64,000 nt of DNA. Source: Escherichia coli (lineage in GTDB: Bacteria > Pseudomonadota > Gammaproteobacteria > Enterobacterales > Enterobacteriaceae). Positions 7,197-29,646 of this stretch are shown piece by piece. Every line of letters starts with the position of its first letter. The stretch's first letter is position 1. Below the pieces are notes generated by a model. The model was not told the DNA's origin. It saw only the letters and a list, made by a program, of their open reading frames with translations, and did no database searches. The stretch lies in assembly GCF_030013205.1 (NCBI RefSeq), contig NZ_CP122648.1; one strand, written 5' to 3'. A program made the position numbers and the translations under genes.

Positions 7197-7208
7197 AATT
7201 CATATCAA

Positions 7209-8656: not shown

Positions 8657-8819
8657 TAATAATCCCCGGGCAAAATGCCCGGGGTACTTTGAATGACTAT
8701 TTTTCTTTGGGCGTGATGAAGAAGATTGATGGTAAGACAAATTACTCCCGACTCTTACGTATTTTCATGGAAAGAAATCCCCCAATATCATCCATCGGGA
8801 TCGAGTAATAACCTGTAAT

Positions 8820-9005: not shown

Positions 9006-9069
9006 ATATCAATACGGTTCTGGCGAGCCGCTTACAATCGAACTGGGATACAGGGAGATAAAACAGACG

Positions 9070-10251: not shown

Positions 10252-10385
10252 GCGTCAATACGGCACTCCGTTAACGCTTACGTTTAAGTCATAAAGCCAT
10301 GCAGAACGCTCACCTCCCAAGATCTTGGTTTTTATAAGGTGTAATGATAATGTAAGCTAATGTTTCACATGCCAAAGGAAACACC

Positions 10386-11714
10386 ATGAGCCACAGGGAA
10401 TTGTTCAGCGAATTTCTTGAAAATTTGAATCTTGACCTCAAACAGGCAAAAAAGATCAGCTATCACTATCGAAAAATAACCAAGTCATTAAATCTTGCGT
10501 TCAGAGGAACGAGTTCCCGGGTAGCAAACCGCTTGAAAGTGGGGTCAGTAGGCAGACATACCGCAATAAAAGGCATATCCGATCTGGATATGCTTTATAT
10601 TATGCCCCCCAATCAGTATGAATATTATAACCGTAAGGATAATGGTCAGTCTGCATTGCTTACAGATGTCAGAAACATTCTGGCGGAAGAATATCCTGAC
10701 CAGACTGTGAAAAAGGACAGACTGGTTGTTCAGATCATCTTTAAAAACTTTTATGTCGAGGTTCAACCTGTATTCAGACAGGATGATGACAGCTTTAAAT
10801 TCCCTGAAAGCTATAATGGAGGAGCATGGCGCATTACAAAACCTCTTCACGAAAAGGCGGCCATGACCGCATTTTCGCGAGATAAATCCAATAATCTGCG
10901 CAAGCTGTGTAAAATGATCAGAGCCTGGAAGAACCTGCATGGCGTCAATATGGGTGGCTTACTGATAGACACACTAGCGTATCGCTTTCTTTCATCAACA
11001 TCAGATTATGACAATACCGGAAATGGCAGCCTGGGAGCCCTCGCCAGAGACTTTTTTGAATATCTGTCAAATGAGGAGAGAAAGGAAAGGTATCTCGCGT
11101 TAGGCAGTAATCAGCATGTACGTGTTAAATCTCCCTGGTTTGGCCGGGCAGCGAAACACGCGTATGAATTATGTTGTGATGCCTTAGACGCTGAGGGGGC
11201 TGCCAGTGAAAATGACCGCTGGCGCAAAGTGTTCGGACGAGCCTTCCCCAGACGTAAAGTGGGTATTATGGAAGCCCGTCTTGGTCTGGAATCGCATGCG
11301 GCAGATGCTGTTCCCTGGACCGATACCGAAGAGTTTATAGAGGATAAATATCCGGTGGATATCAGGTACTCACTCAACCTTGACTGTACCGTAACCCAGG
11401 ATGGTTTCCCTCCCAGAAGCCTGAGGGAGATGCTTACCAGAAGATTCCGCCTCTCCGCTCGAAAATCTCTCCTTTTCCGGGCAGACTTGACAGAAATGGA
11501 GGCAGAGGAACCCTACACCGTTATGTGGAAGGTACTGAACGTGGGTGACGAAGCACGCAGAAGAAATATGATCCGGGGACAAATCGTTTCGGACGGCGGC
11601 TACTGTACGAAGAAAGAAACTACCGACTTCCGCGGAGATCACATGGTAGAATGCTATGTGATAAAAAATGAGGTTGTGGTTGCCCGGGCCCAGATTGAAG
11701 TTCCCATAAGCTGA
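10386..11714 (+). CDS. Pol-beta-fold nucleotidyltransferase with C-terminal extension (SMODS/CD-NTase-like plus AGS-C-like region)
   Basis: ATG with SD aaagga; GS-x10-SDLD nucleotidyltransferase signature (VGSVGRHTAIKGISDLD); about 150-aa C-terminal extension; AT-rich gene. Confidence 0.6.
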   Translation: MSHRELFSEFLENLNLDLKQAKKISYHYRKITKSLNLAFRGTSSRVANRLKVGSVGRHTAIKGISDLDMLYIMPPNQYEYYNRKDNGQSALLTDVRNILAEEYPDQTVKKDRLVVQIIFKNFYVEVQPVFRQDDDSFKFPESYNGGAWRITKPLHEKAAMTAFSRDKSNNLRKLCKMIRAWKNLHGVNMGGLLIDTLAYRFLSSTSDYDNTGNGSLGALARDFFEYLSNEERKERYLALGSNQHVRVKSPWFGRAAKHAYELCCDALDAEGAASENDRWRKVFGRAFPRRKVGIMEARLGLESHAADAVPWTDTEEFIEDKYPVDIRYSLNLDCTVTQDGFPPRSLREMLTRRFRLSARKSLLFRADLTEMEAEEPYTVMWKVLNVGDEARRRNMIRGQIVSDGGYCTKKETTDFRGDHMVECYVIKNEVVVARAQIEVPIS

Positions 11715-11721
11715 GGTTTTT

Positions 11722-12297
11722 ATGACGCAATCAGAGATGCTGAAATTAATCGCCCGACATGGTTATAACGTTGGATTTGGCGCTAAGAAAAACTTTGCCA
11801 CCTATGATCTGATTTGTAAGGCATCCGGTTGGATTAGCTTTATTTCTCTTGCTGTCGGTGTGTTCGCCCTTTTTATTCCTGAGCTGGCCACAAACGTCAT
11901 TTCCGCGATATTAATTATATTTGGTGTTGCTACAATGTACATTCAGTTTTATGACTCGGAAAAGCAGAGTTATGAAAGTGCGGGGATTGAGCAGACCAAA
12001 ATTTTTAATGAACTTGAAGTCATCTACCGCAACGTAAAAAGCGATGCAAACTTTGACTATCAGCGTACACAACAATCCATCGACGCTATCATGTCCCGGT
12101 TTTACGGCACGGTCATCAGCAAACAGATCTTCGGAAGTAACTGGTACGCACATTATAAATTTTACTGTGAATTTGAAAAAGCATGGGTTGAAGAAGAGCT
12201 GAACCTGACACTGAAGGACAAAATCCCGCTTTCGCTCTGCTTTCTCGCCGGTCTGGCGATCATTTTTACTATAGCTGTCATCTGGAAAACGCCCTGA
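11722..12297 (+). CDS. small multi-TM membrane protein (SLATT-like predicted effector)
   Basis: 191 aa, starts 8 nt after the nucleotidyltransferase stop with SD gagg; two adjacent N-proximal hydrophobic helices and one C-terminal helix. Confidence 0.55.
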   Translation: MTQSEMLKLIARHGYNVGFGAKKNFATYDLICKASGWISFISLAVGVFALFIPELATNVISAILIIFGVATMYIQFYDSEKQSYESAGIEQTKIFNELEVIYRNVKSDANFDYQRTQQSIDAIMSRFYGTVISKQIFGSNWYAHYKFYCEFEKAWVEEELNLTLKDKIPLSLCFLAGLAIIFTIAVIWKTP

Positions 12298-12848
12298 TGC
12301 TGCAGCCAATGAAAAATTCAGCAAGCTGACTGTCAAATATGCGATGTATAGCCGGTATCACCATCCAGTGTACGTTCTATAAGGGGGGCGCTTGGAAAAC
12401 GGGTAGAGTCAAGATGTGGCGCGGTAATTTTACAGGTCAGGCATATCTGTTGCCGCCTCTTTCGATTGGCGGTGCCTTACTGTCCTGACCATAAATCCTG
12501 TTTCCACACCCCGCTCATCGAAGCGGACATGCGCTTCTAACACATCCGGCTCTCGGACAGAATCATGCCTTCGCCCACGGAAACCTCTGCGGGAGCTTCG
12601 GTGCATATTTTCATGGAAGGGGATCACCCAATAACTTCCATCGAGATCGGGTCATAACGGCCAATCCGTGATCGAATAGAGCGGAATACGCACTCTGACG
12701 AACTGCTTACATTTAAACTAATTACAAACTATATAAATCCGCCTTGCTCATTCACAGGGTAGATATATTCTTACTTTTAATTTTATGTGTAATTAACTGA
12801 TGACGAAAAATGAATTGAACTGTAAATGCATATCTAAGTTTTTCATTC

Positions 12849-13574
12849 TTATGATGTACATAATACCTTAAAATTATCAACTAGCTGAGCATTAACCTCC
12901 ATCTGACTAATCCCCCATAATGCGGCTAACTGTTTCTCTGCAATCCCACTATCCCATGGCATTAGTGGGTCATTACGAAACTTAGCAAATGGCCCATCTG
13001 TTTCTGTAAGAATGCGTGATTTGGGTATTTTCAAAACTAAGGCCTTACCCTTTATTGTATCGAGCATAGCAGGCCCCACTGAGAACCAGCATCCTAAATC
13101 AATTGCCCTTTCAAGCTGCTTAGGTGTTCCAGTGAACCAATGCAATATTGCCACCCCATCGATATTTTCAATCTCATCAAGCACCGCTGATGCACTTCCC
13201 CGACTATGGATAGTCATAATCTTGCCACCAGCCCGATTTACACTGTTGAGAATGTGTCGGAACACTTTCAATTGAATATCCCAATGTTCTTTAAATCCCT
13301 GTCCACCATCAAGCCCTATTTCCCCTACATACTTAGTTTCCGAAAGCAATGAATCAAACAGGTCTAACTCATGCGATCTTTGATGCGCGATTTGAGGATG
13401 TAGCCCAAGAGCAGTTCGGATTCGTTGACTTTCTTTAGCCAATAAAGAAGTACCATGCCATGCTTTAGGTGTTGTTGTCACCGACAGAATATAAGTCCCT
13501 CGACGTTTACTTTCTTCAGCCACGAGGTCTGGCCGAGGATATAAGTCTAGATGACAGTGCATATCGATGCTCAT
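12849..13574 (-). CDS. qatD: TatD-family metal-dependent DNase (QatD)
   Basis: 241 aa; N-terminal HxH metal motif (MSIDMHCHLDLYP); start ATG overlaps qatC stop (ATGA). Confidence 0.8.
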   Translation of the reverse strand: MSIDMHCHLDLYPRPDLVAEESKRRGTYILSVTTTPKAWHGTSLLAKESQRIRTALGLHPQIAHQRSHELDLFDSLLSETKYVGEIGLDGGQGFKEHWDIQLKVFRHILNSVNRAGGKIMTIHSRGSASAVLDEIENIDGVAILHWFTGTPKQLERAIDLGCWFSVGPAMLDTIKGKALVLKIPKSRILTETDGPFAKFRNDPLMPWDSGIAEKQLAALWGISQMEVNAQLVDNFKVLCTS

Positions 13575-14890
13575 ACTATGTTCTCACTCAGTAAATAGCT
13601 TTCAACCTCATCCAGGCCATCCTTAAATACTTGCTTGAAATTATCAAATTCTGCCGTAGGCAAAGGGCCACTTTTGGCAATCCATGTACCTATTTTCAAA
13701 GTCGATTTCTGCGTGATCGCAATCCTAAGGGCGATCAGGTCGTCCCTGCGATCTATTTCATTCATTACTTTAGCTAAGGACTGGAAAATATATTCAACAT
13801 CTCTACTAATTCCCCCTGCATGAAGTGATGCTCGTCGAATGATACACGGTATACATACCCCACATTGCTGCCCCATTCGTTTCCAATGACTGCAGGATAC
13901 TGTACTTTCCACAATTTTAGATAAGAGCTGCTTATTTGAACATTCGGAGATCATTTTTCCTTTTGTCTTAAACTGATATGGATTGATTATTTGACAAGAA
14001 ATACCGAGCGCATCAAAGATCTTTTGTATGCTCGTAATAAAATGTGGATGTGTTGTTCGTGTGCTCAGCGAACCTATCCGCCGTGGAGTAAGTGGTGCAT
14101 TTAATGAGATAAATCCATTTTCAGGTACGAACAAATCAATCTTTTCTTGTTGAGATATCTCTTGTACGGCACAAGCACCTACGGCCGCAAAGGCAAGAAA
14201 ATTGAGGCTACGAGTTCGCATCGTAATATCAGTCACGCCTTGATAAATGTGTGGGTCAGCATTAATCTCAAAGCGCGAAAATTGGCCACTTAATTTTTCA
14301 GCAATCTGATCTTGACGAGACTTATCCCCCTTATAAGCATGACTAACCAAAAGTGGAGCGCGCCCTGCAGCCAGAAGATCTATTGCACCAATAGCTGAAT
14401 CCAGACCTCCTGAAAATAGGCTGACACAGTCAAGCCCTTTTAGCTTAATCAGACGATGCCTTGAATGCTGGCTATAAGGCTCTGGCGGTGCATAACCATC
14501 GTCACAAAATTCGAAATCCCAGATGTCTCCACTAAGAAAATGCAAAGCACTCTCAAGTTCTTTCTTTAGACTAATCCATCTGGATGGTTCATGAAGGGGG
14601 AGTCGTAACGACAATTGGCGGGTCCAACCATCCTCGGAACTTTCACGCTGAACGAAAGTATCTGCTGCAGTTACTGCTAATGCAACACTCAGAAAATCCA
14701 TGACCTTAGCTGGAAGCTGTACTCCCAAACGTCTGATCCGATCAATCGCAGGATTCCCGATAACAGATATATCTCCGCGCCTCTGACCACTTAATCCATA
14801 TAGCTGAACAGGTAACACTTTCTCACTTGCTGGCGGCAAATGGTGATGTTTATGATGGAAAACTAATTGTGTCACTGGTATGCCTCCCAT
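13571..14890 (-). CDS. qatC: QueC-like PP-loop ATPase (QatC)
   Basis: 439 aa; PP-loop SGGLDS; C-terminal Cys cluster CSHW...CGVCIPC as in QueC. Confidence 0.8.
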   Translation of the reverse strand: MGGIPVTQLVFHHKHHHLPPASEKVLPVQLYGLSGQRRGDISVIGNPAIDRIRRLGVQLPAKVMDFLSVALAVTAADTFVQRESSEDGWTRQLSLRLPLHEPSRWISLKKELESALHFLSGDIWDFEFCDDGYAPPEPYSQHSRHRLIKLKGLDCVSLFSGGLDSAIGAIDLLAAGRAPLLVSHAYKGDKSRQDQIAEKLSGQFSRFEINADPHIYQGVTDITMRTRSLNFLAFAAVGACAVQEISQQEKIDLFVPENGFISLNAPLTPRRIGSLSTRTTHPHFITSIQKIFDALGISCQIINPYQFKTKGKMISECSNKQLLSKIVESTVSCSHWKRMGQQCGVCIPCIIRRASLHAGGISRDVEYIFQSLAKVMNEIDRRDDLIALRIAITQKSTLKIGTWIAKSGPLPTAEFDNFKQVFKDGLDEVESYLLSENIV

Positions 14891-15624
14891 TCTTGCCAGG
14901 CCTCAATAATGGCCTGACGTTCAATTTTTACCATTTGGTTTCGTGTGAACGATCTTATGTTACCGGCAAGTTTTGGTGCCATATGTTTATCAACAACAAC
15001 TTTAATCAATTCCCGGAGTTCAATTTCTGCATGAATTGCCTTTGAAGGTGTATCTGCTTTGTTCCATGCCCTATTAGAATCCATTACCATCTGAAGGAAA
15101 ATACTTTCCGCTAGATAACCAATCATTGTGTCAACAATCACACCATCAGTTATTTTTTGAGGATCGAAAATTTCTACGCCATCAAGAGCCTCCACTAAAG
15201 CATGGTTCATGGCCGCACAGATCTTTTCTGAGTCACCATCCTGTGATGTTAAAGCTTGAGCAATAGTTGATATTGCTATTTCGCATGGAAGGCCTGCCAA
15301 ACTGCCCAAATCGATGCTTGGTTCTCCGGGAGCCGAAGGCATTCCCACTAAAGCCCCAAATAATTCGGCCCCAGCTTGCGTGACACTCCCTAATCGCCGA
15401 GCAGCGTTACTGCTCCCTCCGGAGGCTTTTCGCGCGTAGTGCCCTATGGCTTTTCTGAAATCTGCTCGATTTCCATTTGATACCGCATTTCCCAACGATT
15501 CTCGAAATGGCGCAAACCTCCTTTCTTGCGGCGAGGGTAACGGTTGCTGTGGCTGATCATCAGCCCATGGTGGAACCAGCGGAGAGCCACCTCCTGGACC
15601 TTTACTTGATTGTGATGTTCCCAT
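14872..15624 (-). CDS. qatB: QatB (function unknown)
   Basis: 250 aa Gly/Pro-rich protein between the KAP ATPase and QueC-like genes; start overlaps qatA stop by 1 nt, 3' end overlaps qatC by 19 nt. Confidence 0.65.
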   Translation of the reverse strand: MGTSQSSKGPGGGSPLVPPWADDQPQQPLPSPQERRFAPFRESLGNAVSNGNRADFRKAIGHYARKASGGSSNAARRLGSVTQAGAELFGALVGMPSAPGEPSIDLGSLAGLPCEIAISTIAQALTSQDGDSEKICAAMNHALVEALDGVEIFDPQKITDGVIVDTMIGYLAESIFLQMVMDSNRAWNKADTPSKAIHAEIELRELIKVVVDKHMAPKLAGNIRSFTRNQMVKIERQAIIEAWQEWEAYQ

Positions 15625-17408
15625 TAAGCGTCCTTATTCCATTGTTCATCTTTTAATGCTGCAGTCATCCACGCTGGTCGTTTCATCCCCAACTGTAATT
15701 CCTGTAGATAACGAATTAATATGCTGGCTGCATCTGTTGAGTAGCGGGCCAACAGACATGCGCCGGAAAAGCCTCTGGGCTTACGATCCCAATCTGATAC
15801 CTGCCGTAACTGGTTAATTAAACCTTCCATTACAGGTATTTGCTCCTCACGAGGAAGTGCTTTCAAAAGGTTTTCTGCTGTAGGAGAACTAGTGTTTTTC
15901 AATTCAATTAGTGCATTTAGTACTTCCCGTCCAGATGGCGATAAACCAACCACATATGCACCTATTGGCATAGTTTCTCGGGACAGATATATGGCGGCCC
16001 TTAAGTCAATCCCACCAAGACGAGGTTCAAGTTGGGCCCATTGACTGATGAAAGATTTAGTCGTTGGACTATCAGTCCATGTCTTTGGTGCATCAGTAGG
16101 TATTTGACCGCCATTATCGTCAAGCTGTTTAAGTATCTGGGGAACACCTTGTTCAATATCCACGAGATGATATAAATCAGCGGTGCCATCCACTCCAACA
16201 CAGCGTTCAAAAATTACTAGCTTAGTAATAATTGCTTCATCCAAAGGCATTGCTCGTCGCTTCGCAATTTGAGATCGCATTTTCACAACATTCAACAAGC
16301 GTTTAACGATCCTGGGATTACCATGAATAATTGGAGAGTTGGCTAAAATGGGAGCAATACGGTCAGCACGCGCAAACGCCAGCGCGAGGTTGCTATCATC
16401 CGCTTCACCAGTCATTTTTAAGGCCTCCTGACGTGAGATTGGTTCATCTTTCCAGGATTGCTGTAACGCCTTCTCTAAGCCCTCACGGAGCATAGTTATT
16501 TTTTCGCCTTCTAAGCCATGTTCAATGGCATAAAGCATGAACAGATACGAACGGATCTCACGGACCCCAGCCTTAGGCACCCGAATAGGAACCTGGATTA
16601 GCTTATCCAGATAATCTATTTGATGGCGCTGTGATGCCCCTTTGAAGTAATCAGCCACAGAAGAGCGAATCATGTCCTCATCTGCTGCAATAATAAAGGC
16701 TGTATTAGTCAAGAAAAGGAATAGCCTGATAGCTTCAAGTGTATGGATAGCATTGGCAGGGAGACAGCGGTCTAGGTTATCTATTACCACAATGAGTGGC
16801 TTTCCAAGTTCTTCTAGAATTTCCCCATATTCCTTACGAAAGGCATCAATCTGCTGAGGGGGGCTTTTTTTTGTTTGTGGTTTAATCAAACCACAAGCAG
16901 TTTCTTTACCTTCTTTAGCTATATTGCCTAAAGCCTCATACTCTTCCTGACTCTGGATGCCATCGGTGATATTTCTTAATGCACCAATCCCCCTAGAAAG
17001 CAAACCGCCAGTAGGTAATCCTGCCATTAAAGCTGTACCCTCAGCTAGTAATCCCATAGCTCTAAAACCATCAACTCGACTAAGGAGTCTCTTAGTTTTT
17101 GATATAAGGGTAGAATTACCTTCAGCAGCTTTTGTCAATTCTGTAGCGATGACTTCAAGAAGTGCGGCACGGGCGTCGTCGTACCCCTGATAGAGCCAAG
17201 AGTCAAAATTGATAACAATCCAATCTTTGTCGTCTTGCTCAAGTTTTTGCTCTATCAGTTTTAACAGAGAGGATTTACCTGCCCCCCAGTTTCCAAAAAT
17301 TCCGATAGATACTGGTAACATATCTTTCGTGGTAAGTACATCCACGGCTAACTGAGATACTTCACCAAAATTTAGGTAGTCTTCTGATGACTCTTTGTCT
17401 GACCACAT
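15624..17408 (-). CDS. qatA: KAP-family P-loop NTPase (QatA)
   Basis: 594 aa; Walker A GNWGAGKSS near N-terminus. Confidence 0.8.
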   Translation of the reverse strand: MWSDKESSEDYLNFGEVSQLAVDVLTTKDMLPVSIGIFGNWGAGKSSLLKLIEQKLEQDDKDWIVINFDSWLYQGYDDARAALLEVIATELTKAAEGNSTLISKTKRLLSRVDGFRAMGLLAEGTALMAGLPTGGLLSRGIGALRNITDGIQSQEEYEALGNIAKEGKETACGLIKPQTKKSPPQQIDAFRKEYGEILEELGKPLIVVIDNLDRCLPANAIHTLEAIRLFLFLTNTAFIIAADEDMIRSSVADYFKGASQRHQIDYLDKLIQVPIRVPKAGVREIRSYLFMLYAIEHGLEGEKITMLREGLEKALQQSWKDEPISRQEALKMTGEADDSNLALAFARADRIAPILANSPIIHGNPRIVKRLLNVVKMRSQIAKRRAMPLDEAIITKLVIFERCVGVDGTADLYHLVDIEQGVPQILKQLDDNGGQIPTDAPKTWTDSPTTKSFISQWAQLEPRLGGIDLRAAIYLSRETMPIGAYVVGLSPSGREVLNALIELKNTSSPTAENLLKALPREEQIPVMEGLINQLRQVSDWDRKPRGFSGACLLARYSTDAASILIRYLQELQLGMKRPAWMTAALKDEQWNKDA

Positions 17409-17539
17409 TTTTATATCCTTTACATCACCAATTTTTACGTCATTGAGTAAACTACAGGTTTGATAAAACCAACTCTGTTCAGGTGGGCAAATTCAGTGTA
17501 CCACTTCATCAATAATCCAATATGATGACTGCTATAGAT

Positions 17540-18742
17540 CTATTTTTTAAAGAATGAAATAAGCTTTCTTATCCCAGTCCATATTTTCCTATCAGAATCC
17601 GAAGGGTTAAATTCGCTCTTGTCAAAATCAGCAACCTCAGCAACCTCAGCAACCTCAGCAACCTCAGCAACCTCAGCAACCTCAGCAACCTCAGCAACCT
17701 CAGCAACCTCAGCAACCTCAGCAACCTCAGCAACCTCAGCAACCTCAGCAACCTCAGCAAGGTTTATTCTATTTTGATGAGCTGTCAAATGTTCTTTGTT
17801 AATTTCATCTCTAATTAGCTGTTCTTTTTCTATGCTGTAGTTTTTGTCATTATAAGTCACATCAAAATCATCTAAGAAAACGATATAAATCAATTTAAAA
17901 AAACTAGTCTTAAATAAAAAACTATCGCACTCATCAGGAAAACCAAAAAAGAAAACATTAAGATATTTGGTTGCTTTGCGCTTGTCTTTTAGTCCATTAT
18001 AATACTTATTTGCTTCTGCTCTTTGTTTTTCATACTCACTACAGAAAAAACTCTTTTTACTTTCATCCCATTCTGAAGCATCAATTTCAAGTTTATATGC
18101 TTGTTTGGTACCTTTCTTTCTGGCTAAAAAAGTAAGGTAATATCTATTCGAATTTATCTCCAGCCGTATATTAGATTGAATTTTACCAAAATAAATTGCT
18201 GGCTTATTATATCTAATTCCTTCTTTATAGATGATTAGTTGAAAAGTATCTTTATAAGTTCTAACTCCATAAGGGGGAATTGATAATGGTTCATAGAGAT
18301 TATCTCCATTAATGTAGTAGTCTACTACCGGTTTGATGCTTGAAGATGACACAGGGTGTACTTTACCTCCCAAATCTTTTTCATCATCTCGCGTCTGTTT
18401 GATAATTCTTCTGCCAGAAGAGTCGTAATTTCTTTCAGACACATCAAGTTTCAGAAGAGATATAGCTAATGCCGGTGGTGAATTATGCTTTTTATTATTC
18501 TTTGAGTTACACTTATTTTTACTCTTAGGATCATGAATCTTACATCCCGGCCTATGAGTCTCTTTATATCGAAAGTATGATTGATTTAAATTTATTTCTT
18601 TGAAGCTACATGGAGTAGCGGGTATCCTACATTTGTCATACGGGCATTCAAAAGTGGTTGTTCGTATATAAAGATCATCCATTTCCCGAAGATCATGACC
18701 ATGAACAATTTCACCACTAACAGAATCTCTTGCTATTGTCAC
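17540..18742 (-). CDS. hypothetical protein with N-terminal Cys cluster and C-terminal (Ala-Glu-Val)n repeat
   Basis: 400 aa; GTG start preceded by perfect SD AAGGAG at 5-nt spacing; C33/C38/C45/C67 with flanking His; AT-rich; co-directional with qatA 131 bp downstream. Confidence 0.6.
   Translation of the reverse strand: MTIARDSVSGEIVHGHDLREMDDLYIRTTTFECPYDKCRIPATPCSFKEINLNQSYFRYKETHRPGCKIHDPKSKNKCNSKNNKKHNSPPALAISLLKLDVSERNYDSSGRRIIKQTRDDEKDLGGKVHPVSSSSIKPVVDYYINGDNLYEPLSIPPYGVRTYKDTFQLIIYKEGIRYNKPAIYFGKIQSNIRLEINSNRYYLTFLARKKGTKQAYKLEIDASEWDESKKSFFCSEYEKQRAEANKYYNGLKDKRKATKYLNVFFFGFPDECDSFLFKTSFFKLIYIVFLDDFDVTYNDKNYSIEKEQLIRDEINKEHLTAHQNRINLAEVAEVAEVAEVAEVAEVAEVAEVAEVAEVAEVAEVAEVAEVADFDKSEFNPSDSDRKIWTGIRKLISFFKK
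17628..17760. repeat. perfect 9-bp tandem repeat (gcaacctca), about 14.8 copies, in-frame within the 400-aa CDS
   Basis: Direct reading of sequence; encodes the AEV repeat on the minus strand. Confidence 0.97.
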
Positions 18743-18980
18743 ACAATCTCCTTTGATAAAAATTAATAGATTCTAATTTCATACCAAGGCTAATTTAAAT
18801 AAAGGCTATTTAAGAGAAAAACAAGTCAGCCTGACAGACATATCCCCTCCCATGGCAATATGCCGCTATTTCGCGTTTTTTTTCACGCCATAATGCGTTT
18901 CAAGGTAGCGAATATCTTCGATTGCCCATGGTGTGCGCATTCTTTTGGGTTTATTTTCCATTACCATGTTTTATCAGCCA

Positions 18981-19190
18981 TCATGGCAGCCTCTCCGGTT
19001 TGCCAGCGTGTTCCACCTGATAACGATTAATCAGCTGATTCAGTGCCATTTCAGCCTGTTTTTGCTGCTGTTCACTGCCATTCTGGTTACGGGCTTCATC
19101 ATAGCGACGTAACTGCTCTTCCGCCGGGATATGCCGGTTAAAAGCCTGCATGATGCCAAACACCTCTGTTTTCAGTTCACTGACCGTCAT
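18981..19190 (-). CDS. small hypothetical protein
   Basis: 69 aa from internal ATG with SD gggga (track ORF 84 aa); Gln/Glu-rich helical sequence. Confidence 0.4.
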   Translation of the reverse strand: MTVSELKTEVFGIMQAFNRHIPAEEQLRRYDEARNQNGSEQQQKQAEMALNQLINRYQVEHAGKPERLP

Positions 19191-19950
19191 GTATTTTCCC
19201 CGCTGTTCATCCAGACGGTTCAGGCGCTCAGCCATCCGCGGCCTGAAGAGATAAAGGCGATAATAAAACAGACATCAGTGTCAGTGACAGCAAGGACGGA
19301 CAGCGCCGGAATAAGCTTTGTTCCTCAGCCCTCACGTTCCTGCAACATAATTTTCCAGCCAAACGAAAAACCTTTTATTCATGCCATACCAATAATCGCC
19401 AGCCTCCTGGCGATGCCTCCCACCATGTTTTGCAGTGGTACGCTACCGCCCTTCCGGTATTTACCCGCATCAACCGGTACCAGAATGCTGAGTAACAAAC
19501 CAGCTCAGAACTGACTGAATTTTGATCATTATAGAATAATGATCTGAACTGCAGCAATATAACAGATTTATCGATCGATATAACGCAAATGAACAGATCT
19601 TTATTCTGTCATATATCGCAAAAACAGCACATTACAAAATTTATAACCATAATTAATGGAAAAGTGCAGAAAATTATTCCACTGAATGCTTTTAATACAG
19701 TTAGTTAGCTAAAAAAATAGCAATTTTTGATTTCAGTCATTGAAAATTGCAATGCGTGACGATTCAACAGCATTTAAGTGAGTTTCAGGATATGGGAAGG
19801 ACATGAAAGGAGGAGCGCAATAAAATATACAGGAAGAAGGGGAAAATGTTTCGTAAAAACAGAAAATTAACAGCGCACATCAGGAAACTCAGTCTCCTGA
19901 TTCAGTGCTACCACATGAAAATTTAGTTAACTGTTACCGTACTAAAATTT

Positions 19951-20142
19951 ATGTCAGAAGATGTTCCATTACCGAAAGTCAATCAGCGATACAAAGACGA
20001 TCATGGTGCGCTTGTCACCGTGACCAGTGTTGAGGAAACCCGGGTGGTGTTTATGCGGGACGGCTATCCGCATCCCTGCATGCGACCGATGTACAACTTT
20101 CTGGGAAAATTCAAACCCGAACCCCGGGAAGAAACAGAATAA
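19951..20142 (+). CDS. small island protein (DUF4222-like)
   Basis: 63-aa ORF MSEDVPLPKVNQRYKDDHG...; family assignment from memory. Confidence 0.4.
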   Translation: MSEDVPLPKVNQRYKDDHGALVTVTSVEETRVVFMRDGYPHPCMRPMYNFLGKFKPEPREETE

Positions 20143-20194
20143 AACGAAATCCCTGCCGGCAATCACACTGCCTGATGGCAGCATAATCCACTTA

Positions 20195-20428
20195 TTAATT
20201 CTCATCCCCGGAGACAAGCCCAGAAAACCACTCCGGGTGTTCACTGTATGCCGTGTTCAGCGCATCCCAGGAAACGTTTATATAAAAGCTGTCCTGCAAT
20301 TTCCGGGTAACCACCTCTGCCAGGCGGTTCCGGTTATCCGCCAGTCCGGCATAACCTCTCTCTGTCAGCCACTCATTCAGTTCATGTTTCAGAGACAGAT
20401 TAATAATCTCATAATCGGACCTTGCCAT
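20195..20428 (-). CDS. small hypothetical protein
   Basis: 77 aa from ATG 20428 with SD aagga upstream. Confidence 0.4.
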   Translation of the reverse strand: MARSDYEIINLSLKHELNEWLTERGYAGLADNRNRLAEVVTRKLQDSFYINVSWDALNTAYSEHPEWFSGLVSGDEN

Positions 20429-20523
20429 TCCCGTTTCCTTAGCACATATTTTCAGGCACGGGGATAAAGTATAAAGAATGTCGTACTGCTGCTGCCAGAG
20501 CAATATTCCCCCTGATGGTTGTA

Positions 20524-21159
20524 TCAGAGATGGTATGCCGGTACTTTGCGGGTTGTTCCTGTCAGGTTATCGTGCACCTCCACGGTCGTGGTCACCACCG
20601 GCATTCCGGCCTTTCTCAGCCTCAGAACATCAGCCGCAATACGCTGACTGCCAAACCAGAACAGGCCGTCCAGTGCAGTCACCAGTAAACCCGCCTCCAG
20701 TGCATACTTCAGCCGTTCACGGGGCGCTTTCACTTCCCGGGCAACCTGCTGATATGGCAATGATGTGTTTTCATTCCCAACCACGCGACGAATACGGTGA
20801 GACAGATGATACCGGAATGTATCCGGCACACCAGAAAGGCTGGCCTTCAGGCTGTACACGCAACCAAACCGTTTATCGTTAAACACCACATTTTTCTGGC
20901 TGATGCCCCATTCTTCACGCAGCGCGGCAATCAGTTGTGGTGTCCGGGTAAGCAGCAAGCGAAAAGGCAGTTCAAAACTGGTGACGTAATCCACATTCAG
21001 CAGTGCAATACGCAGCCGTTCTTCTGGCCCGGCCTCTGTCTGCCGGCACTCCTCCAGAACATCCTGCCACTGCTGGCGAAGACGGGGCGATTCGCTCCGT
21101 TCTGTAAAACAGTATTTATCCGCCAGATAGTCAATTTGTGTACGCATACTGAAGAGCAT
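20524..21159 (-). CDS. hypothetical island protein
   Basis: Long ORF (219 aa from a TTG); first ATG at 21159; start uncertain. Confidence 0.4.
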   Translation of the reverse strand: MLFSMRTQIDYLADKYCFTERSESPRLRQQWQDVLEECRQTEAGPEERLRIALLNVDYVTSFELPFRLLLTRTPQLIAALREEWGISQKNVVFNDKRFGCVYSLKASLSGVPDTFRYHLSHRIRRVVGNENTSLPYQQVAREVKAPRERLKYALEAGLLVTALDGLFWFGSQRIAADVLRLRKAGMPVVTTTVEVHDNLTGTTRKVPAYHL

Positions 21160-21456
21160 TCCGTATAAAGATTCAGCTGACAAAACTTTATCAGTCCATA
21201 AGAATCAACGGAAGCACCGATGGTTCACTTGGTCATCGCCAAGTTTTGCCATAACCGGTAGCAATGATCATTCTGTGTAACTATTTGGCCCACAGATGAT
21301 GATGTTTATCGATGTCTCCTCTGTCTGAATGTCGCATAAAGAGGATCATCAGCAGACACAGCCAGTGAACCACCGTCCGCGGAACAAAGCGCCGGACCAC
21401 ATCCGGATCCGGCAGGGACATGACTGGCATGATCAAGTAATTATGTCGCATCTCCC

Positions 21457-21870
21457 TCACTCCTGGTCCCGGAGCAAATCTGGCTGGTATCTGTAAACAT
21501 ACTTCGTACATGCCGCTCTGCAATAAATCCCCGTATCACAGGTTTCACAGAACTTCTTCCCATGAAAAAGCCTCTCGCACATCACGCAATGCCACTCCAG
21601 CACGACAGGTAATGGCGATAAAAACATCGCCATATCATCAATGTAAGGATGGGATTTTTCCGGATTCAGCACCACGCAGGCCGCCTTCTGTTGCGCGCTC
21701 AGGGCATGTAAATCATGCTCAAACCACGCCCCCTGAGCATCTGTCTGCAAAATCAACCGGCCACGACAGGAAAGGCAGAAACACTGCCGGATATTTCTGC
21801 TGAGCGCAGAGTTGGCACTGATAATGTGCTCACCCGGCGTGATCCCCAGCCCCATTTTTATGCCGTTCAT
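21457..21870 (-). CDS. Cys/His-rich small protein (putative zinc-binding)
   Basis: 137 aa with multiple CxxC pairs; ATG overlaps upstream gene stop (ATGA). Confidence 0.5.
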   Translation of the reverse strand: MNGIKMGLGITPGEHIISANSALSRNIRQCFCLSCRGRLILQTDAQGAWFEHDLHALSAQQKAACVVLNPEKSHPYIDDMAMFLSPLPVVLEWHCVMCERLFHGKKFCETCDTGIYCRAACTKYVYRYQPDLLRDQE

Positions 21871-22256
21871 CCTGCTACCACCTCCTCACTGAAGCGCCCG
21901 GTCTGGCAGTGTGTGCAGTACTGCTCCCCATAATAATCGTGGTGACATTGTCTGCAGTACCAGCTGGCTTTACGTACTACGGGTAAGGCATCCGGTACGA
22001 ATTGCTGCAGACGTTTAATCAAACGTATTTCTCTGCGTTCCGGTCTGACATAAGGGCACTCATGACCGTGCTCAGTCAGCCCATCGTCAGTGTGTTCAAA
22101 CCAGGGACGTTCAGTGTCGTATTGCGGGTGGTATCTGAGTGCACTGCCACAAAGATGACAGGTATAACGATCATATGGCGCAGTCTGTGCGGTACGGGCA
22201 CCGGTCAGACGTCCGTTGCCATCAAATGCGAGAAAAGATTTTGCGTACATAGTCAT
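21867..22256 (-). CDS. Cys/His-rich small protein (putative zinc-binding)
   Basis: 129 aa; SD gagga; CHLCG...CPY...CRQCHH...CTHCQ motifs. Confidence 0.55.
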   Translation of the reverse strand: MTMYAKSFLAFDGNGRLTGARTAQTAPYDRYTCHLCGSALRYHPQYDTERPWFEHTDDGLTEHGHECPYVRPERREIRLIKRLQQFVPDALPVVRKASWYCRQCHHDYYGEQYCTHCQTGRFSEEVVAG

Positions 22257-22509
22257 ATTCCTCAGCCGCCAGACGACACGCAGGCAACAGCCGTCCCGGT
22301 ACGGGCAGCGTGGTCAGGGTGTGAATGGCGGTTCAGTTAAAATCTGGACTGGAGTTTGGGTAAAGCAGGCTGGTTGCTGTTACAGCACTGTGGTTGTCAC
22401 ACAATGGAACACTGACGTAAAAAACAGTCCGTGGGCGAGTGGATACATCGTTGCTGCCAGACAACAACCCATACTTTTGGTTTGCCGGGTATTGGCGCGC
22501 CAGTCGTGC

Positions 22510-23079
22510 TCAACTCCGGCTACAGCCAAAATTACGCTCACCGGTACCGTTGACTTTGGTGTACTCTTTCGCGAGATAGTCAGCACGGTTCAGCATATCC
22601 CGTAAACCAGCATCATCATCGCGTTCCAGCCACACCACCGGCCTGGCCGGAAAATGCACCAGCGTGGCATAGCATCCGGCATCCACCCCCAGGGCACTGC
22701 ACCACGCCTGTTTAATCATCCCGGCCAGTGACCCCGGATCGCGGTAATCGCCCGCACCACACCAGGTATCACGGTTGACCAGCAGTATCAGGTGATAGTG
22801 TTTTTTACCCCTGAGCACCCCGAATTCCCGGGCCCAGACGTAATGCAGCCTTGTGGTATGTACGCGTTTACCTTCACGGCGCTTACGCTTCTGGTAAGCA
22901 TCGATTCGGGCTTTCAGGGCATTGATGAAGCGGGATATCACTGCTGCGTCAGTTGCTGCCGGTACATCCGGGAGACGCAGGTCAACCCGCAATGCCGTCA
23001 GACGGGGATGAACATCAAGTGCGCGCAGCACCGTCTCACGGATACGTTGTTGCCAGAAGGGTTTGTACTCGTGTGTCAT
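22510..23079 (-). CDS. YagK/YfjJ-family (inovirus Gp2-like) protein
   Basis: 189 aa; SD ggag; resembles YfjJ-type proteins of CP4-57-like elements (from memory). Confidence 0.55.
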   Translation of the reverse strand: MTHEYKPFWQQRIRETVLRALDVHPRLTALRVDLRLPDVPAATDAAVISRFINALKARIDAYQKRKRREGKRVHTTRLHYVWAREFGVLRGKKHYHLILLVNRDTWCGAGDYRDPGSLAGMIKQAWCSALGVDAGCYATLVHFPARPVVWLERDDDAGLRDMLNRADYLAKEYTKVNGTGERNFGCSRS

Positions 23080-23282
23080 GGTTAAATCTCCGTATGGTTT
23101 CGTTCATACGGAATAACCACGCCGTTAAAAATGCGCAGAGTCCCTGAAGTGATCGCCAACCAGGCAATATCTCAGGCACCCGGTGATAACCCGACAGTCG
23201 TCTCCGGACTGACGGCTGAATTTTCAGCGTTGTTTTTTTAATGCAAAAAGCCGGTTACGGGGAAGGTTGTGAGGAGGACGTG

Positions 23283-23480
23283 ATGGTGATACGCCAAACG
23301 GTGTGCAGGGATTGTGATAACGCCATCCCTCATAATACGGAATGTTGCCCGAGCTGCGCGTCAACAGCTTCCTCAGGCTATTACCGAAATACCGATCGTC
23401 TGCTCTTTCTACTGACGTTACTGTCTGTGCTGATTCTGGCTGTCGTTTCAGGCGTCAGTGTATTTGTACTGTTGCGGTAG
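23283..23480 (+). CDS. small zinc-ribbon membrane protein
   Basis: 65 aa from ATG with strong SD gaggagg; CxxC...CCPSC followed by a C-terminal TM helix. Confidence 0.4.
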   Translation: MVIRQTVCRDCDNAIPHNTECCPSCASTASSGYYRNTDRLLFLLTLLSVLILAVVSGVSVFVLLR

Positions 23481-23818
23481 GTTACAGGGGAGGAATTATC
23501 CGGAATCAACGGGGCAGAACGCCCCGCCGCCTCTGCGTTTGCTGTGCCAGACAGTAACGCGCCGGATCCCCGGTAAATACGAGAAAACCTCAGCATATAC
23601 AGGCCGGTAATGCCCGAAAATCAGCCCATGACCACCCACACCTCCGGATACCATTCCCTTTTGATTTCGAATTCTTCGCTATACCGCTTAACGTTCCCGG
23701 TATTATCCTGGTTCCCGACAACAGGAACATATTCAGCTTTTAACAACCTGAGAAAACCCAAAAAGAATCACACAGAGCAGATAACACCTGGCGCAATACC
23801 GCTGTGATTGCCAAACGT

Positions 23819-24031
23819 TCAGGTGACATATTTCCAGACGGAAGCCGGCACGCGATCATAAAGTTTGTTCATCGTCAGTTCTGCCAGCCGGTGATCGACC
23901 GCAGAGTTGAAAGCTTCCAGCTCCGCAGGGGTAAGTTTATAACGCGTGTGGGAAATCACTTTTTCCAGTGTCTCCCGGGATGAACAACGACGGAACTGAT
24001 ACAGCCAGTCTTCTTTGGTTTTAACTTCCAT
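23819..24031 (-). CDS. small hypothetical protein
   Basis: 70 aa, SD gagagg upstream. Confidence 0.4.
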   Translation of the reverse strand: MEVKTKEDWLYQFRRCSSRETLEKVISHTRYKLTPAELEAFNSAVDHRLAELTMNKLYDRVPASVWKYVT

Positions 24032-24733
24032 TAGCCTCTCATTACTTTATGCTGCAATTAACGTGATACTGTCAGCATGCCGCACCAGACCGGCATTCTG
24101 GTACCCTCCCCAAACTTATTACTCCCGTGCCACCACTTAACCGGTATCTCAGACTGACACTCACCAGGTCGGATACGTTTACCGCTCAAATACACTCTGT
24201 TCACGTGTGTTGCAGGTACGTTTTATATACGCAGGTTATACGCCAGCTATCAGAGATAGCCCTGTGGGTACAACGCAATCTGTTGTTACTGCGTTCTCAT
24301 ACCCACTGATCACACTCACAGTGTTTATTTCACATATATGAACTCATGTATTTGATCTCATGTGTTTGCTCTCTCTTATATATTTAATACCAATCAGACA
24401 GTCTTATCCCATCGGTGATACCTGTCGCCTGCCCGCCGGACACGGGCTGCCCCACCGTAACCGCCCCGTAAATAACTCTGCAATTATCAGAACGACGGCT
24501 CTTCCCCTCATCCTCCCGAAAAGCATCCCTTCTCTGTCGTGCGTACGCGCGGGAAGCATCGTTTCGCGGTAGCCACCGGGTATCTCAGCATCATGCCCCC
24601 TGTTTATCTCTCGGCAGGAATATTCCCCTACTCATTTTTTACGTTTCTCCCCGGTTGTTATGCCGGTGAAGGTGGTGCGTTGTTTTTATCACCAATGCCG
24701 GTTGAGATTAACAACATCCGAAGGAACATTTTC

Positions 24734-25712: not shown

Positions 25713-27218
25713 TTATGACCGAAAGAATTGCTCTTTCCATTCTCTCAGTTTCTGGCTGTGATAGCCCTGCTCGTAACACGCCTTCAACTCAGAGAACGTG
25801 ATATTGTTTACTCTGGAAAGCAGGACATAGGTTGTTTTACCTTCTCTCTCAAAGGAAAGCTTTAACTGAGACGCAAGAATGTTCAACAGTGCGTTCAGTT
25901 TTTTTCTGTTTCTGAAACGCCCCGGGCCACACTGGAGAATATAATTTTTCCTGACACGAGGCGGGCATTCTCCGCGGCACTCCTCAATGAGCCAGTCGAG
26001 CAGCTCCTGTGCGTCCTGCAGCTGCAGTTCAGATTCATCAGGTAACGCAAATAATTTTTTATATTCATCTGTGTACCACGAACTTATTACGACAGCAGAC
26101 GTCATGATATCGGCAGTAATTTTCCCTTCCCCCTGACTGAAATACTGCAATAATGCAGCAATTCTCGCAATGTTTTCTGTTTTTTTTGAAACATGTCCCC
26201 GAAACGCACTTAACGGACCGGAAGGAGATAAATCCTGCTCAAGAACATTATAGTGCTCAATAAATATTTTTTGCGCTTCAGGCGAAAAATGCAGACAATA
26301 CCGTTCATCCTTACTGGATTTTTCAATACTGGCTCTGGCCAGTTCCATTAATCGTTCATGAAATGCCGTTAACGATCCTCCCGGGGTCACAGCTCCGTTA
26401 ATAAAGCGTTTCCCCTGCGTGCTTGCAGGTTTACTGATAAGGCAACGGGCAAGAAAACCACTGTCTCTGGCAACAGCACCTTTTCGCTCCATATATCGGT
26501 CAAAAAGACCGGGTTGCACCATGAGGGATAACGTCATTCTGGCATTTTCAATCATCTGTTCGGGTTCATTCTTTCTGTCCACAGACAACACTGAGCCATC
26601 CCACATTTTGTTAATAAAAGGCAACTCAGACAGGGTATATCCATCAAATATAATACCAGCTTCATCTGACATAATACCAACTGAACGCCATTTACCACAA
26701 AGCTGATTCTTAATTGCCGCAGTCGTGGCATCATTAACAATGAATTTATACCTCACAGGTTCTTCCGCACTGTTTTTCTGAAGTACTTCCAGTTGTCTGA
26801 GGGTTTCTGACTCATCCGCGCCTTTGCGGAGTTCTTTATTCAGTTTTGACAACAATGCTTTTTTCTGAGCCTTTAAAAGCTCTTCCTTGTTTTTCCAGAC
26901 AGCCAGTTCACTTTTGTATCTGGAATATAACTGCATCTCCTGCTGGTACAGGGGCTTCATTAATAATTTGTCCACTGCGGTTTTTCGTTCTCCGGACTCG
27001 GCAAGCGTCAGGAAAAAAAGAGAAACCGGCCCCCGCAGTGTATTCAGTCTGCAGACATCAATCAGATTCTGGCAGACAAGTGAAACAGCGCCCAGTGCAG
27101 ATGCTGCCACAAGCCCAAGGGGAGCCTGCGTAATTTGCTGAGCTTCAATAACGGCATCACGAATGAGTGGAGGCAGCGAACTCAGGGGGAACTCATCACA
27201 AGGCTGACCGAATGACAT
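25713..27218 (-). CDS. DUF3987-like (YfjI-family) island protein
   Basis: 501 aa from ATG 27218 with SD tgaggt (track ORF starts at upstream TTG); follows alpA as in CP4-57-like elements. Confidence 0.5.
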   Translation of the reverse strand: MSFGQPCDEFPLSSLPPLIRDAVIEAQQITQAPLGLVAASALGAVSLVCQNLIDVCRLNTLRGPVSLFFLTLAESGERKTAVDKLLMKPLYQQEMQLYSRYKSELAVWKNKEELLKAQKKALLSKLNKELRKGADESETLRQLEVLQKNSAEEPVRYKFIVNDATTAAIKNQLCGKWRSVGIMSDEAGIIFDGYTLSELPFINKMWDGSVLSVDRKNEPEQMIENARMTLSLMVQPGLFDRYMERKGAVARDSGFLARCLISKPASTQGKRFINGAVTPGGSLTAFHERLMELARASIEKSSKDERYCLHFSPEAQKIFIEHYNVLEQDLSPSGPLSAFRGHVSKKTENIARIAALLQYFSQGEGKITADIMTSAVVISSWYTDEYKKLFALPDESELQLQDAQELLDWLIEECRGECPPRVRKNYILQCGPGRFRNRKKLNALLNILASQLKLSFEREGKTTYVLLSRVNNITFSELKACYEQGYHSQKLREWKEQFFRS

Positions 27219-28402
27219 AGTAACCTCACTACATACAGATATAAAAGCACTGCAATTTTGGCTATTAATAGCAAAAATAGCAGTCAAATCAATATGAGGT
27301 AAAAATTTTTGTTGATTTAATGGTTAAATAATAACCACAGTGTGTTTTGCTGCTGAAGAAAGACAAAATGAATCTGTGTGTCCCCTCCTTCCCTTCGGAG
27401 CATATCTACTGTTCAAATTTTACACAATCACGTACAAACAAAAAGCATCATCCCGGGTATTGCAGATACCGGTTTCCTGCCGGGAAGAATCATAAACAGA
27501 AAACCCGGAATAACACCTTCAGAAAGCGACTTCCCTCCTGAAGAATAATAAAGAAGACGATAATTCCTGTCCTGAATTCGATATTTCATGGATATGACGC
27601 CATTTTTATAAATGACAAAAAAGCATTTAATGCTGACACATCAGGAAAAACAAAATAATACCCCCCTGCCGATACAGATAAAACACACCAATTTTCTTTG
27701 AATGCTCCCGCATAATTGTCAGACAGTGATAAAAATGGGTTATGACAATCTTTCTTCAACAAAAACCTGTCTTCTGTTTTTTTACATCAGCATCCTGCTT
27801 AAATTAAACGTAAACGAGCACAGCATTTCTGTACCAGAACTAAAAATCAGCTATTATTCAGCACCCTCAATCAATAAAATCTCAACAATATTATCCGGAA
27901 CAGCATGGTACCTCTATCAAAGGTTTTTAACAGGACAATTAACATTACTGAACAGCCTTCCTGCAGAACCACTGCAAATATAAAACCAGGGCGCAGGATA
28001 AATAATCACACCCTGAAAAATGCTGTCACACAAAAAAAAATTAATCACTGCACATAATCCGGAAGCGAAATACCAAACAACCCGGTATCAACAGGTATCA
28101 TTGCGTGCGCCACTCTTATAAAAAACACACAGCAGAAGTAAGATAATTATAAACGTAATTTTAATATCTCTCTGCCCCCCACAAAAAAACACTGAAAAAA
28201 AAATACTCACATCAGTAAACATGAGCACACCTGATAATCAGGCTGTCAGAGGAATGATATTTCCCTTTTACGGGATAGTCAGCCCGCCATTGAACAATGT
28301 TCAAATCGATTCAAAATAATTTCAGACAGATATTATCGTTGTGAGTCCCCCGCCACCTTTCCGGTACGCGGGATTTTGTCTTTTTTCACCGGGAATACAT
28401 GT

Positions 28403-29275
28403 ATGAATCCGTCTGATGCCATTGAGGCAATTGAAAAACCGCTCTCCTCCCTGCCTTATTCGCTTTCCCGTCACATCCTGGAACATCTGCGTAAACTCAC
28501 CAGCCACGAACCCATGATTGGCATTATGGGGAAAAGCGGGGCCGGTAAATCCTCACTCTGTAATGCGCTGTTTCAGGGGGAGGTCACCCCGGTCAGTGAT
28601 GTTCACGCCGGCACCCGGGAAGTGCGGCGCTTCCGTCTGAGTGGCCACGGTCACAGCATGATTATCACTGACCTGCCCGGGGTGGGCGAGAGCCGGGACA
28701 GGGATGCAGAGTATGAAGCCCTGTACCGTGACATTCTGCCTGAACTTGACCTGGTACTGTGGCTGATTAAAGCCGATGACCGTGCCCTGTCTGTGGATGA
28801 GTATTTCTGGCGACACATCCTGCACCGGGGACATCAGCGGGTACTGTTTGTGGTGACGCAGGCCGATAAAACGGAGCCCTGCCATGAATGGGATATGGCC
28901 GGTATTCAGCCTTCTCCCGCACAGGCACAGAACATTCGCGAAAAAACGGAGGCGGTATTCCGTCTGTTCCGGCCCGTACATCCGGTTGTGGCCGTATCGG
29001 CCCGCACCGGCTGGGAACTGGATACGCTGGTCAGCGCGCTCATGACAGCACTTCCCGACCATGCCGCCAGTCCCCTGATGACCCGCCTGCAGGACGAGCT
29101 GTGCACGGAATCTGTCCGGGGGCAGGCCCGTGAACAGTTTACCGGTGCGGTGGACCGGATATTTGACACGGCGGAGAGCGTCTGTGTTGCCTCTGTTGCA
29201 CGCACGGTTCTGCGTGCCGTCCGTGACACGGTGGTCTCTGTTGCCCGCGCGGTATGGAACTGGATTTTCTTCTGA
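28403..29275 (+). CDS. yeeP: YeeP/YkfA-family GTPase
   Basis: P-loop GKSGAGKSS; placed immediately upstream of the antigen 43 gene as in CP4-44. Confidence 0.7.
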   Translation: MNPSDAIEAIEKPLSSLPYSLSRHILEHLRKLTSHEPMIGIMGKSGAGKSSLCNALFQGEVTPVSDVHAGTREVRRFRLSGHGHSMIITDLPGVGESRDRDAEYEALYRDILPELDLVLWLIKADDRALSVDEYFWRHILHRGHQRVLFVVTQADKTEPCHEWDMAGIQPSPAQAQNIREKTEAVFRLFRPVHPVVAVSARTGWELDTLVSALMTALPDHAASPLMTRLQDELCTESVRGQAREQFTGAVDRIFDTAESVCVASVARTVLRAVRDTVVSVARAVWNWIFF

Positions 29276-29389: not shown

Positions 29390-29432
29390 AAACGATCGAT
29401 AAAACAGGTATCGATCGCCATCATCGATCGTT
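29390..29432. promoter_or_regulatory. three clustered GATC sites upstream of Ag43 (Dam/OxyR phase-variation switch)
   Basis: GATC at 29394, 29413 and 29426 within 36 bp, about 220 bp upstream of the Ag43 start. Confidence 0.6.
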
Positions 29433-29646
29433 TATAGTGGTTAATGACCTGCGAAAAGGCAGTTGATTCTCTTCATCATGCAGAACGGAATTGCACACAA
29501 CGGACTGATGCTTCTCTGGCGGATGAGAGAGGGGAAGCATTTATGTCCGAGAAAAACCACTTTATCTGACCATGCTGTTTTGTACCTGCCGGTATCCACA
29601 TTTGTGGGTACCGGCTTTTTTATTCACCCTCTGTAAGGAAAAGCTG

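Follow-up and report, generated by a model that had tools for sequence, protein, structure and literature searches.

A non-coding AT-rich gap between yfjI and a YeeP/YkfA/YfjP-type GTPase gene in an Escherichia coli island: a drifting core and a conserved promoter-like right end

Introduction

The stretch of Escherichia coli DNA analysed here (the window, 64,000 nucleotides at its full length) carries an acquired island with an intergenic gap of more than 1 kb. The question raised by this locus is what so long a gap consists of, and whether any of its parts has a role of its own. We found that the gap is an ordinary non-coding AT-rich region between divergently transcribed island genes. By itself it is of little importance, being another AT-rich intergenic region of an acquired island. 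We favour, with modest confidence, a reading of the gap as a divergent intergenic region in three parts: the 5' region of the yfjI gene on the left, a core that would act through its composition, and a right end that would be the control element of the GTPase gene. Of the whole gap, only the conserved motif and hairpin at 28310-28386 deserve an experiment, and they make a defined 95-nt target for the question of how the block of genes from GTPase to CbtA is switched on.

Bounds and genomic context of the gap

The sequence of the window from 27200 to 28450 is 100% identical to that of the E. coli strain ETEC4079. In the RefSeq annotation of this identical sequence, a yfjI-family gene starts at 27218 and a GTPase gene starts at 28403 in the divergent orientation; the whole unannotated gap therefore spans positions 27219-28402 (1184 bp). 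The sequence-only reading had placed the left boundary at 27288, which is the end of a mechanical ORF extended to a TTG codon. The stretch that it pointed out is real, but its annotated start is 27219.

The left flanking gene (25713-27218, minus strand) codes for a helicase-like protein of the YfjI family with a DUF3987 domain (Pfam E-value 1.8e-96). In a comparison with PHROG, the same protein matched family 2373, 'DNA helicase', with an E-value of 2e-82. The right flanking gene (28403-29275, plus strand) codes for a GTPase of the YeeP/YkfA/YfjP type, as judged by the RefSeq annotation and by the Pfam domain MMR_HSR1 (E-value 1e-14). It is the first gene of a co-directional plus-strand block of about 10 kb, with the order GTPase, Ag43, DUF932, antirestriction, RadC, DUF987, YeeU/CbtA and DUF4942.

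The island is inserted at a tRNA-Phe gene, adjoining cadC, and has an integrase of the tyrosine-recombinase type at the tRNA gene. Besides, it carries IS remnants, a Qat defence system, a SLATT pair, hha and an AlpA-like regulator. The part of the window beside tRNA-Phe, at about 7100-23000, holds the Qat anti-phage system, a nucleotide-binding protein with the SLATT pair, IS remnants and hha. In ETEC4079 the position of the tRNA differs by about 63 bp, which means that the window does not match exactly this strain throughout.

Among the stretches of the island with no annotated gene the gap is the longest, with 1184 bp compared to at most about 750 bp elsewhere. In this sense the gap is indeed, as had been stated, the longest region of the island without a convincing ORF. 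By a criterion of ORFs of at least 100 aa, however, the region 23080-24538 is longer, although small annotated genes, hha among them, are located in it.

Protein-coding content

The claim that the gap is non-coding was borne out. In its diverged part, no ORF of at least 25 aa kept both its frame and its stop across four sequences representing three allele classes. When the longest ORFs of the gap (up to 93 aa) were compared with Pfam and NCBIfam, only one match appeared, at chance level (E-value 0.24). No annotated feature was seen in the body of the spacer (27300-28300) among the 40 matches listed out of those in the 1906 carrier genomes. The mechanical ORFs of up to 93 aa are what would speak for a small protein gene hidden in the gap; given that none of them holds both frame and stop where the alleles diverge, that none has a meaningful family match and that the matches listed show no annotation, we consider such a gene extremely improbable.

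Distribution of the spacer and of the GTPase module

Among 5426 complete E. coli genomes, 1906 carry the body of the spacer, at 2348 places in total. Nearly one-to-one with it, the 5' end of a yfjI gene of this type occurs at 2284 places in 1865 genomes. A query comprising the whole gap and 48 nt of the GTPase gene detected the GTPase leader in 4158 E. coli genomes, at 9121 places, with most matches spanning only the last ~150 nt. Having 9121 copies across 4158 of the 5426 complete genomes, the GTPase-to-CbtA block ranks with the commonest accessory modules of E. coli; about a quarter of the GTPase modules have the spacer in front of them.

Outside E. coli, none of 29 loci of other species had yfjI upstream of the GTPase gene, and the recognisable part of the gap was limited to the last ~90 nt. 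The homology to the GTPase loci of other genera ended around 28305-28310, immediately before the promoter-like motif described below. Since the spacer is nearly one-to-one with yfjI and rarer than the GTPase leader, it is part of the yfjI side, with the seam located at the GTPase promoter. The sequence-only reading had proposed that the region marks a seam between two modules; the genome comparison supports the seam and moves it from within the spacer to the promoter.

We found no homologs of the spacer in phages, and the only plasmid records with the spacer were mislabelled, chromosome-sized E. coli sequences. A scan of viral contigs with 16-mers returned 12 loci, one of which had the spacer. 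The CP4-57 island of K-12 shares no part of it.

Conserved promoter-like motif at the right end

The right end of the gap carries a promoter-like motif, TTCAAA-15 nt-TATTAT, at 28310-28336 on the plus strand. It is present in a single copy per locus, in every case 66-84 nt before the ATG of the GTPase gene. Together with the hairpin and U-run that follow (28310-28386 in all), the motif is conserved in about 20 species from many enterobacterial genera. We compared 17 sequences from about 16 species, with GTPases 45-65% identical to each other. The mean pairwise identity at 28313-28332 was 0.82-0.87, equal to that of the codons of the GTPase P-loop, and the identity dropped to background left of 28303. 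The -10 hexamer scored 5/6 in 22 of 22 sequences, while the -35 hexamer scored from 2/6 to 5/6, with a spacing of 15 nt. The hexamers of a sigma-70 promoter are expected at a spacing of 16-18 nt. A generic promoter scan made no call at this motif. An alternative -10 hexamer inside the motif (AATAAT) was rejected, as no conserved -35 accompanies it.

The genes yfjP and ykfA of K-12 are preceded by TTGAAA-15-TATCAT. Both sites were reported by Shimada et al. (2014) as 'constitutive promoters' of the RpoD holoenzyme, found by genomic SELEX (PMC3946193); in that work the sites were bound by the RpoD holoenzyme on its own, and the hexamers were predicted from the bound fragments. The K-12 sites share with the right end of the gap the unusual 15-nt spacing, nearly the same hexamers, the position before a paralogous GTPase and the subsequent hairpin with U-run. 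On the other hand, their upstream DNA is unrelated (the rnlB or the perR side), and neither the 1.1-kb spacer nor a yfjI gene adjoins them. In the literature, we found no start-site mapping for the yfjP and ykfA sites of K-12.

The right ~95 nt of the gap would make the control element of the GTPase module itself: a promoter of the sigma-70 type in which the -10 is invariant, the -35 weak and the spacer only 15 nt long. We infer that this promoter is active in vivo. Still, the -35 hexamer scores only 2/6 in many genera, and conservation in the 15-nt spacer is no lower than in the hexamers. A plain promoter would not normally have such a pattern, which is suggestive of a bound factor or of an RNA function.

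Two further observations concern other genomes. In several genera, as well as in some E. coli, the GTPase gene is immediately preceded by a gene for a member of a family of 290-400 aa proteins with an RHH-like C-terminus; the stop codon of that gene adjoins the -35 hexamer of the motif (loci L003, 2130-3002; L021, 2987-3916; L029, 2829-3917; L014, 2925-3875; L028, 2690-3895). These proteins had no match in Pfam, NCBIfam, PHROG or PADLOC. In CP4-57 of K-12, a weak second match to the promoter-leader model (L040, 22442-22548; 20 bits, E-value 0.57) lies before the pseudogene ypjI and may be a relic of another GTPase module.

Leader hairpin and U-run

The motif is followed by a terminator-like leader hairpin at 28349-28372 and a U-run at 28374-28386, ending 16 nt before the ATG on the plus strand. 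Downstream of the U-run come the ribosome-binding site and then the start codon of the GTPase gene. The position of the hairpin is kept across genera with at least five unrelated stem sequences. Nearly all lineages have a GC-rich stem-loop with a U-run, with the exception of Pectobacterium, in which the run is broken.

The stem is kept by compensatory changes. In a model-guided alignment of 26 sequences, where fitting to the model favours the structure, the hairpin and an outer helix together had double changes in 11 of 17 pairs compared to 6.2 in shuffles (none of 500 shuffles reached the observed value), and the covariation score was 0.178 compared to 0.044-0.072 in slid controls. The helix of the hairpin alone had double changes in 6 of 10 pairs. 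The outer helix, in which the 7 nt after the -10 hexamer pair with the 7 nt before the ribosome-binding site, had double changes in 5 of 7 pairs and is absent in Hafnia, in Pectobacterium and in the window allele. This modelled helix conflicts with a transcription start 7 nt after TATTAT, which would leave those 7 nt out of the RNA.

In the window allele the hairpin is weakened by two substitutions, with a stem of 5+3 bp. The fold of the whole leader has -13.2 kcal/mol (z-score +0.8) in the window allele and -24.4 kcal/mol in the common allele. Still, a terminator scan of the window flagged 28359-28373 with the tail. In the three-part reading, the hairpin and U-run would terminate or attenuate most transcripts before they reach the GTPase-Ag43-antirestriction-CbtA block.

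Intrinsic terminators located close to promoters and 5'-UTR attenuators, as charted by Term-seq in PMC7815308, are similar to this arrangement in having a GC-rich hairpin and a U-run between promoter and start codon, the stem being kept by compensatory change. The GTPase leader differs from them in that we found no competing antiterminator fold, leader peptide or ligand-binding domain in it, and in that the window stem is degraded. The Term-seq tables of PMC7815308 have no 3' end in the yfjP leader of K-12. A supplementary table of the same paper places a region of bicyclomycin-sensitive (Rho-dependent) termination about 75 nt upstream of the K-12 yfjP -35 hexamer, in the rnlB-yfjP gap (K-12 coordinate 2767534, plus strand).

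An alternative to the promoter-terminator pair is an undescribed regulatory leader, with the invariant 24-nt motif binding a protein or an RNA. The first bases of such a leader would pair with the bases before the ribosome-binding site and enclose a terminator. This reading comes jointly with a core selected as a silencer or insulator, and we regard the combination as unlikely. If true, in many Enterobacterales such a leader would act as a gate to the entire GTPase-Ag43-antirestriction-toxin/antitoxin block.

Palindrome at the left end

At the other end of the gap, the left ~100 nt would be the 5' region of yfjI. A palindrome at 27249-27284 (minus strand; inverted repeat I2, 89% complementary), with the centre GCTATTAATAGC, is positioned 31-66 nt upstream of the yfjI ATG, and the fold of the yfjI leader has a z-score of -2.85. 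The yfjI gene of CP4-57 in K-12, whose protein is 52% identical, has a palindrome at the same place (L040, 5908-5940); its centre, ATTAATAG, is the same, with both arms altered. The palindrome is probably an operator or a leader (5'-UTR) hairpin of yfjI, and we list it as a candidate for either. Both this palindrome and the right-end motif with its hairpin had been missed in the sequence-only reading.

RNA content

No Rfam family matched the gap at gathering thresholds. At permissive thresholds, the best scores in the region 27000-28600 were 16-20 bits, compared to thresholds of 52-65 bits. Folding in sliding windows on both strands showed as standouts only the two ends of the gap and the minus-strand interval 27430-27549; in the core, neither strand had excess folding (z-scores near 0). 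Within the said interval, a stable minus-strand fold at 27430-27518 ends in U5 (-29.8 kcal/mol, z-score -3.4, with none of 200 shuffles as stable) and is strand-specific owing to G-U pairs. Its pairs are kept in three allele classes, while the outer stem is lost in the allele L054 of strain MSI001. The fold is a candidate terminator or RNA element, not confirmed as either.

A different reading of the gap is that it makes a non-coding RNA, either a long minus-strand leader of yfjI with an attenuator at 27430-27518, or a plus-strand RNA of ~40-50 nt from the conserved promoter to the hairpin. The first version draws on the stability, the U5 end and the strand specificity of the minus-strand fold, as well as on the skew of the minus strand (T>A, G>C), the sign of which would fit long-term leftward transcription. 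The second draws on the order of a promoter and an immediate terminator, which is the layout of a small RNA gene. However, replication bias in this orientation would match the skew too, the outer stem of the fold is missing in L054, and the generic scan gave 4 promoter-like matches in the region compared to 3.7 in shuffles. Given also the lack of Rfam matches, and no report found in the literature on yeeP/ykfA/yfjP, in that on small RNAs of pathogenicity islands or in Term-seq tables, we think a non-coding RNA quite unlikely. The pertinent items in that literature were limited to the genomic-SELEX listing and the Rho-dependent region upstream of the K-12 yfjP promoter. Against the unannotated small RNA that had been suggested for this region stand the Rfam result, the core with no excess folding and the loss of the minus-strand fold in the most divergent allele; no conserved small RNA was found in the core.

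The same island module does have a known non-coding RNA. IsrC/IS102 (Rfam RF00124, 68 bits) was found at 29392-29628 on the plus strand, between the GTPase gene and Ag43, and is situated likewise in CP4-44 of K-12. It is located 3' of the GTPase gene, outside the gap, while the region 27000-28600 has no match to IsrC or to any other family.

Composition and A/T runs

The GC content of the gap is 37.2% compared to 48.6% for the 64-kb window; stretches of this size reach the same AT-richness in only 1.7% of cases. The base fractions of the top strand are A.367, C.223, G.149 and T.260, with A exceeding T and C exceeding G. We counted 18 A/T runs of at least 5 nt in the gap, compared to 9.8 +/- 2.4 expected from 1000 dinucleotide shuffles, none of which reached 18; this run density is the top value within the 64-kb window. 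The longest runs are A9 at 28032-28040, A9 at 28195-28203, A7 at 28183-28189 and T7 at 27777-27783. A cluster of A-runs (A5, A9, A6, A7, A9; plus strand) spans 28016-28203. The earlier description of an AT-rich spacer with long A-tracts is therefore accurate, with A9, A7 and A9 runs all present.

For curved DNA, which had been offered as a possible property of the spacer, the outcome was different. The cluster has no helical phasing, and in a curvature check of the gap the AA/TT power at periods of 9.5-12 bp was not above that of shuffles (P 0.28-0.48), so the expected periodicity at 10-11 bp is absent. The TpA steps are depleted in the spacer alleles, with observed/expected ratios of 0.73-0.81. 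The 1184-bp gap has no GATC site, compared to 3.8 expected by composition and to a window mean of 3.5 per kb; other spacer alleles have 1-3 sites.

Alleles and evolution of the core

The spacer exists in at least four allele classes that are 70-88% identical. Compared to loci with the common allele, the window has flanking gene segments with 98-99% identity and a spacer with 82% identity overall. The divergence of this pair is concentrated at 27514-28340, and other pairs of alleles have other breakpoints. The fast-evolving core with its mosaic alleles, at 27514-28300, is 20-30% diverged from the common allele, with flanks 98-99% identical. The fourth allele (strain MSI001) is 70% identical over the full length, and it is situated beside a yfjI gene with a dS of only 0.06. 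For deeper alleles of yfjI and the GTPase gene, the full-gene dS was 0.12-0.25, close to the spacer distances.

Hypermutation as the source of the divergence was rejected. As the divergence is about equal to the dS of the deeper gene alleles and recombination breakpoints are present, the pattern is one of drift at a neutral rate plus recombination. The spacer alleles make up a recombination mosaic between island copies, and the core appears to drift at a roughly neutral rate. At the same time, five alleles of the spacer stayed within narrow ranges of length (1184-1331 bp), GC content (37.2-38.5%), GC skew (-0.19 to -0.21) and AT skew (+0.14 to +0.20). The retention of so much ORF-free DNA is the sole hint of a function of the core; the role so indicated would rest on composition instead of sequence.

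Role of the core

In the three-part reading, a core of about 0.9-1.0 kb would travel with yfjI, drift nearly neutrally and be reshuffled between island copies, with length, skew and a GC content of 37-38% held constant. The core would act by its composition, as AT-rich DNA bound by H-NS and by the island's own Hha, and in the bound state it would keep the modules on its two sides quiet and separate. H-NS has a preference for acquired DNA that is AT-rich, and the composition of the gap suggests H-NS silencing as the most likely role of the core. An H-NS-bound region is expected to be well above the genome average in AT content for several hundred bp; the gap has 37.2% GC over 1184 bp, and the composition is alike in all alleles. 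With hha present in the same island, silencing, which had been proposed in the sequence-only reading, is plausible.

The gap is similar to the AT-rich island regions known for xenogeneic silencing by H-NS in its GC content, which is ~11 percentage points below the surroundings, in its location in a tRNA-Phe island between divergent genes and in the hha gene of this island. It differs in that the A-runs are unphased, TpA steps are depleted, and length and composition are conserved but sequence is not; binding of H-NS here is predicted from composition. H-NS favours TpA steps over A-tracts, and the lack of phasing and the under-representation of TpA steps are evidence against the H-NS reading.

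The near-neutral evolution of the core would be equally consistent with no function. The core could be a leftover of a decayed gene or insertion that has come to an AT-rich mutational equilibrium, with only the two ends being regulatory. Its divergence (Jukes-Cantor (JC) distance of about 0.27-0.38) equals or exceeds the dS of the flanking genes (0.06-0.25), conserved ORFs, structures, repeats and motifs are all absent, and indels of up to 73 nt, some palindromic, were gained and lost. However, bacterial genomes normally lose useless DNA by deletion, and five alleles 12-30% apart have all remained at 1.18-1.33 kb with no large deletion and with GC content and skew kept. A relic of the gene family that precedes the GTPase gene in other lineages was looked for in the spacer, but tblastn gave no signal (E-value > 0.2), and a decayed copy of that gene was rejected. 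On balance, we hold a functionless leftover to be a real possibility, although a rather doubtful one. In the joint reading with a regulatory leader, set out above as unlikely, selection would maintain the core as a silencer or insulator that depends on composition and is tied to yfjI.

AT-rich DNA beside a helicase-like gene could also be a replication origin of the excised island, by analogy with P4 ori/crr and the origins of phage-inducible chromosomal islands. The gap shares with these systems the AT-rich non-coding DNA adjoining a replication gene of helicase type and the tyrosine-recombinase integrase at a tRNA; YfjI itself matches a phage 'DNA helicase' family and DUF3987, and the spacer is inherited together with yfjI. 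It differs from them in having no iterons and no conserved initiator sites. The best families of repeated k-mers in the gap were no larger than those in shuffles, with two-copy matches only, and a search for DnaA, IHF, Fis and GATC sites gave nothing above chance (one loose DnaA box, no IHF site, no GATC). Drift at a neutral rate is also unlike a site read by a specific initiator. Therefore, an origin is in our view very improbable.

The spacer is a clean natural case in which the sequence drifts freely while length and composition are fixed, and it is a convenient object for a test of composition-based silencing.

Two insertions set other alleles apart from the window, which has neither. The common E. 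coli alleles of the spacer have a 73-nt insert with a long hairpin just before the -35 hexamer (L002, about 4082-4154), which falls between window positions 28298 and 28299. One allele (L007) has an extra insert of ~64 nt after window position 28047, built around the perfect palindrome GATCACGGTTTGGCCAAACCGTGATC.
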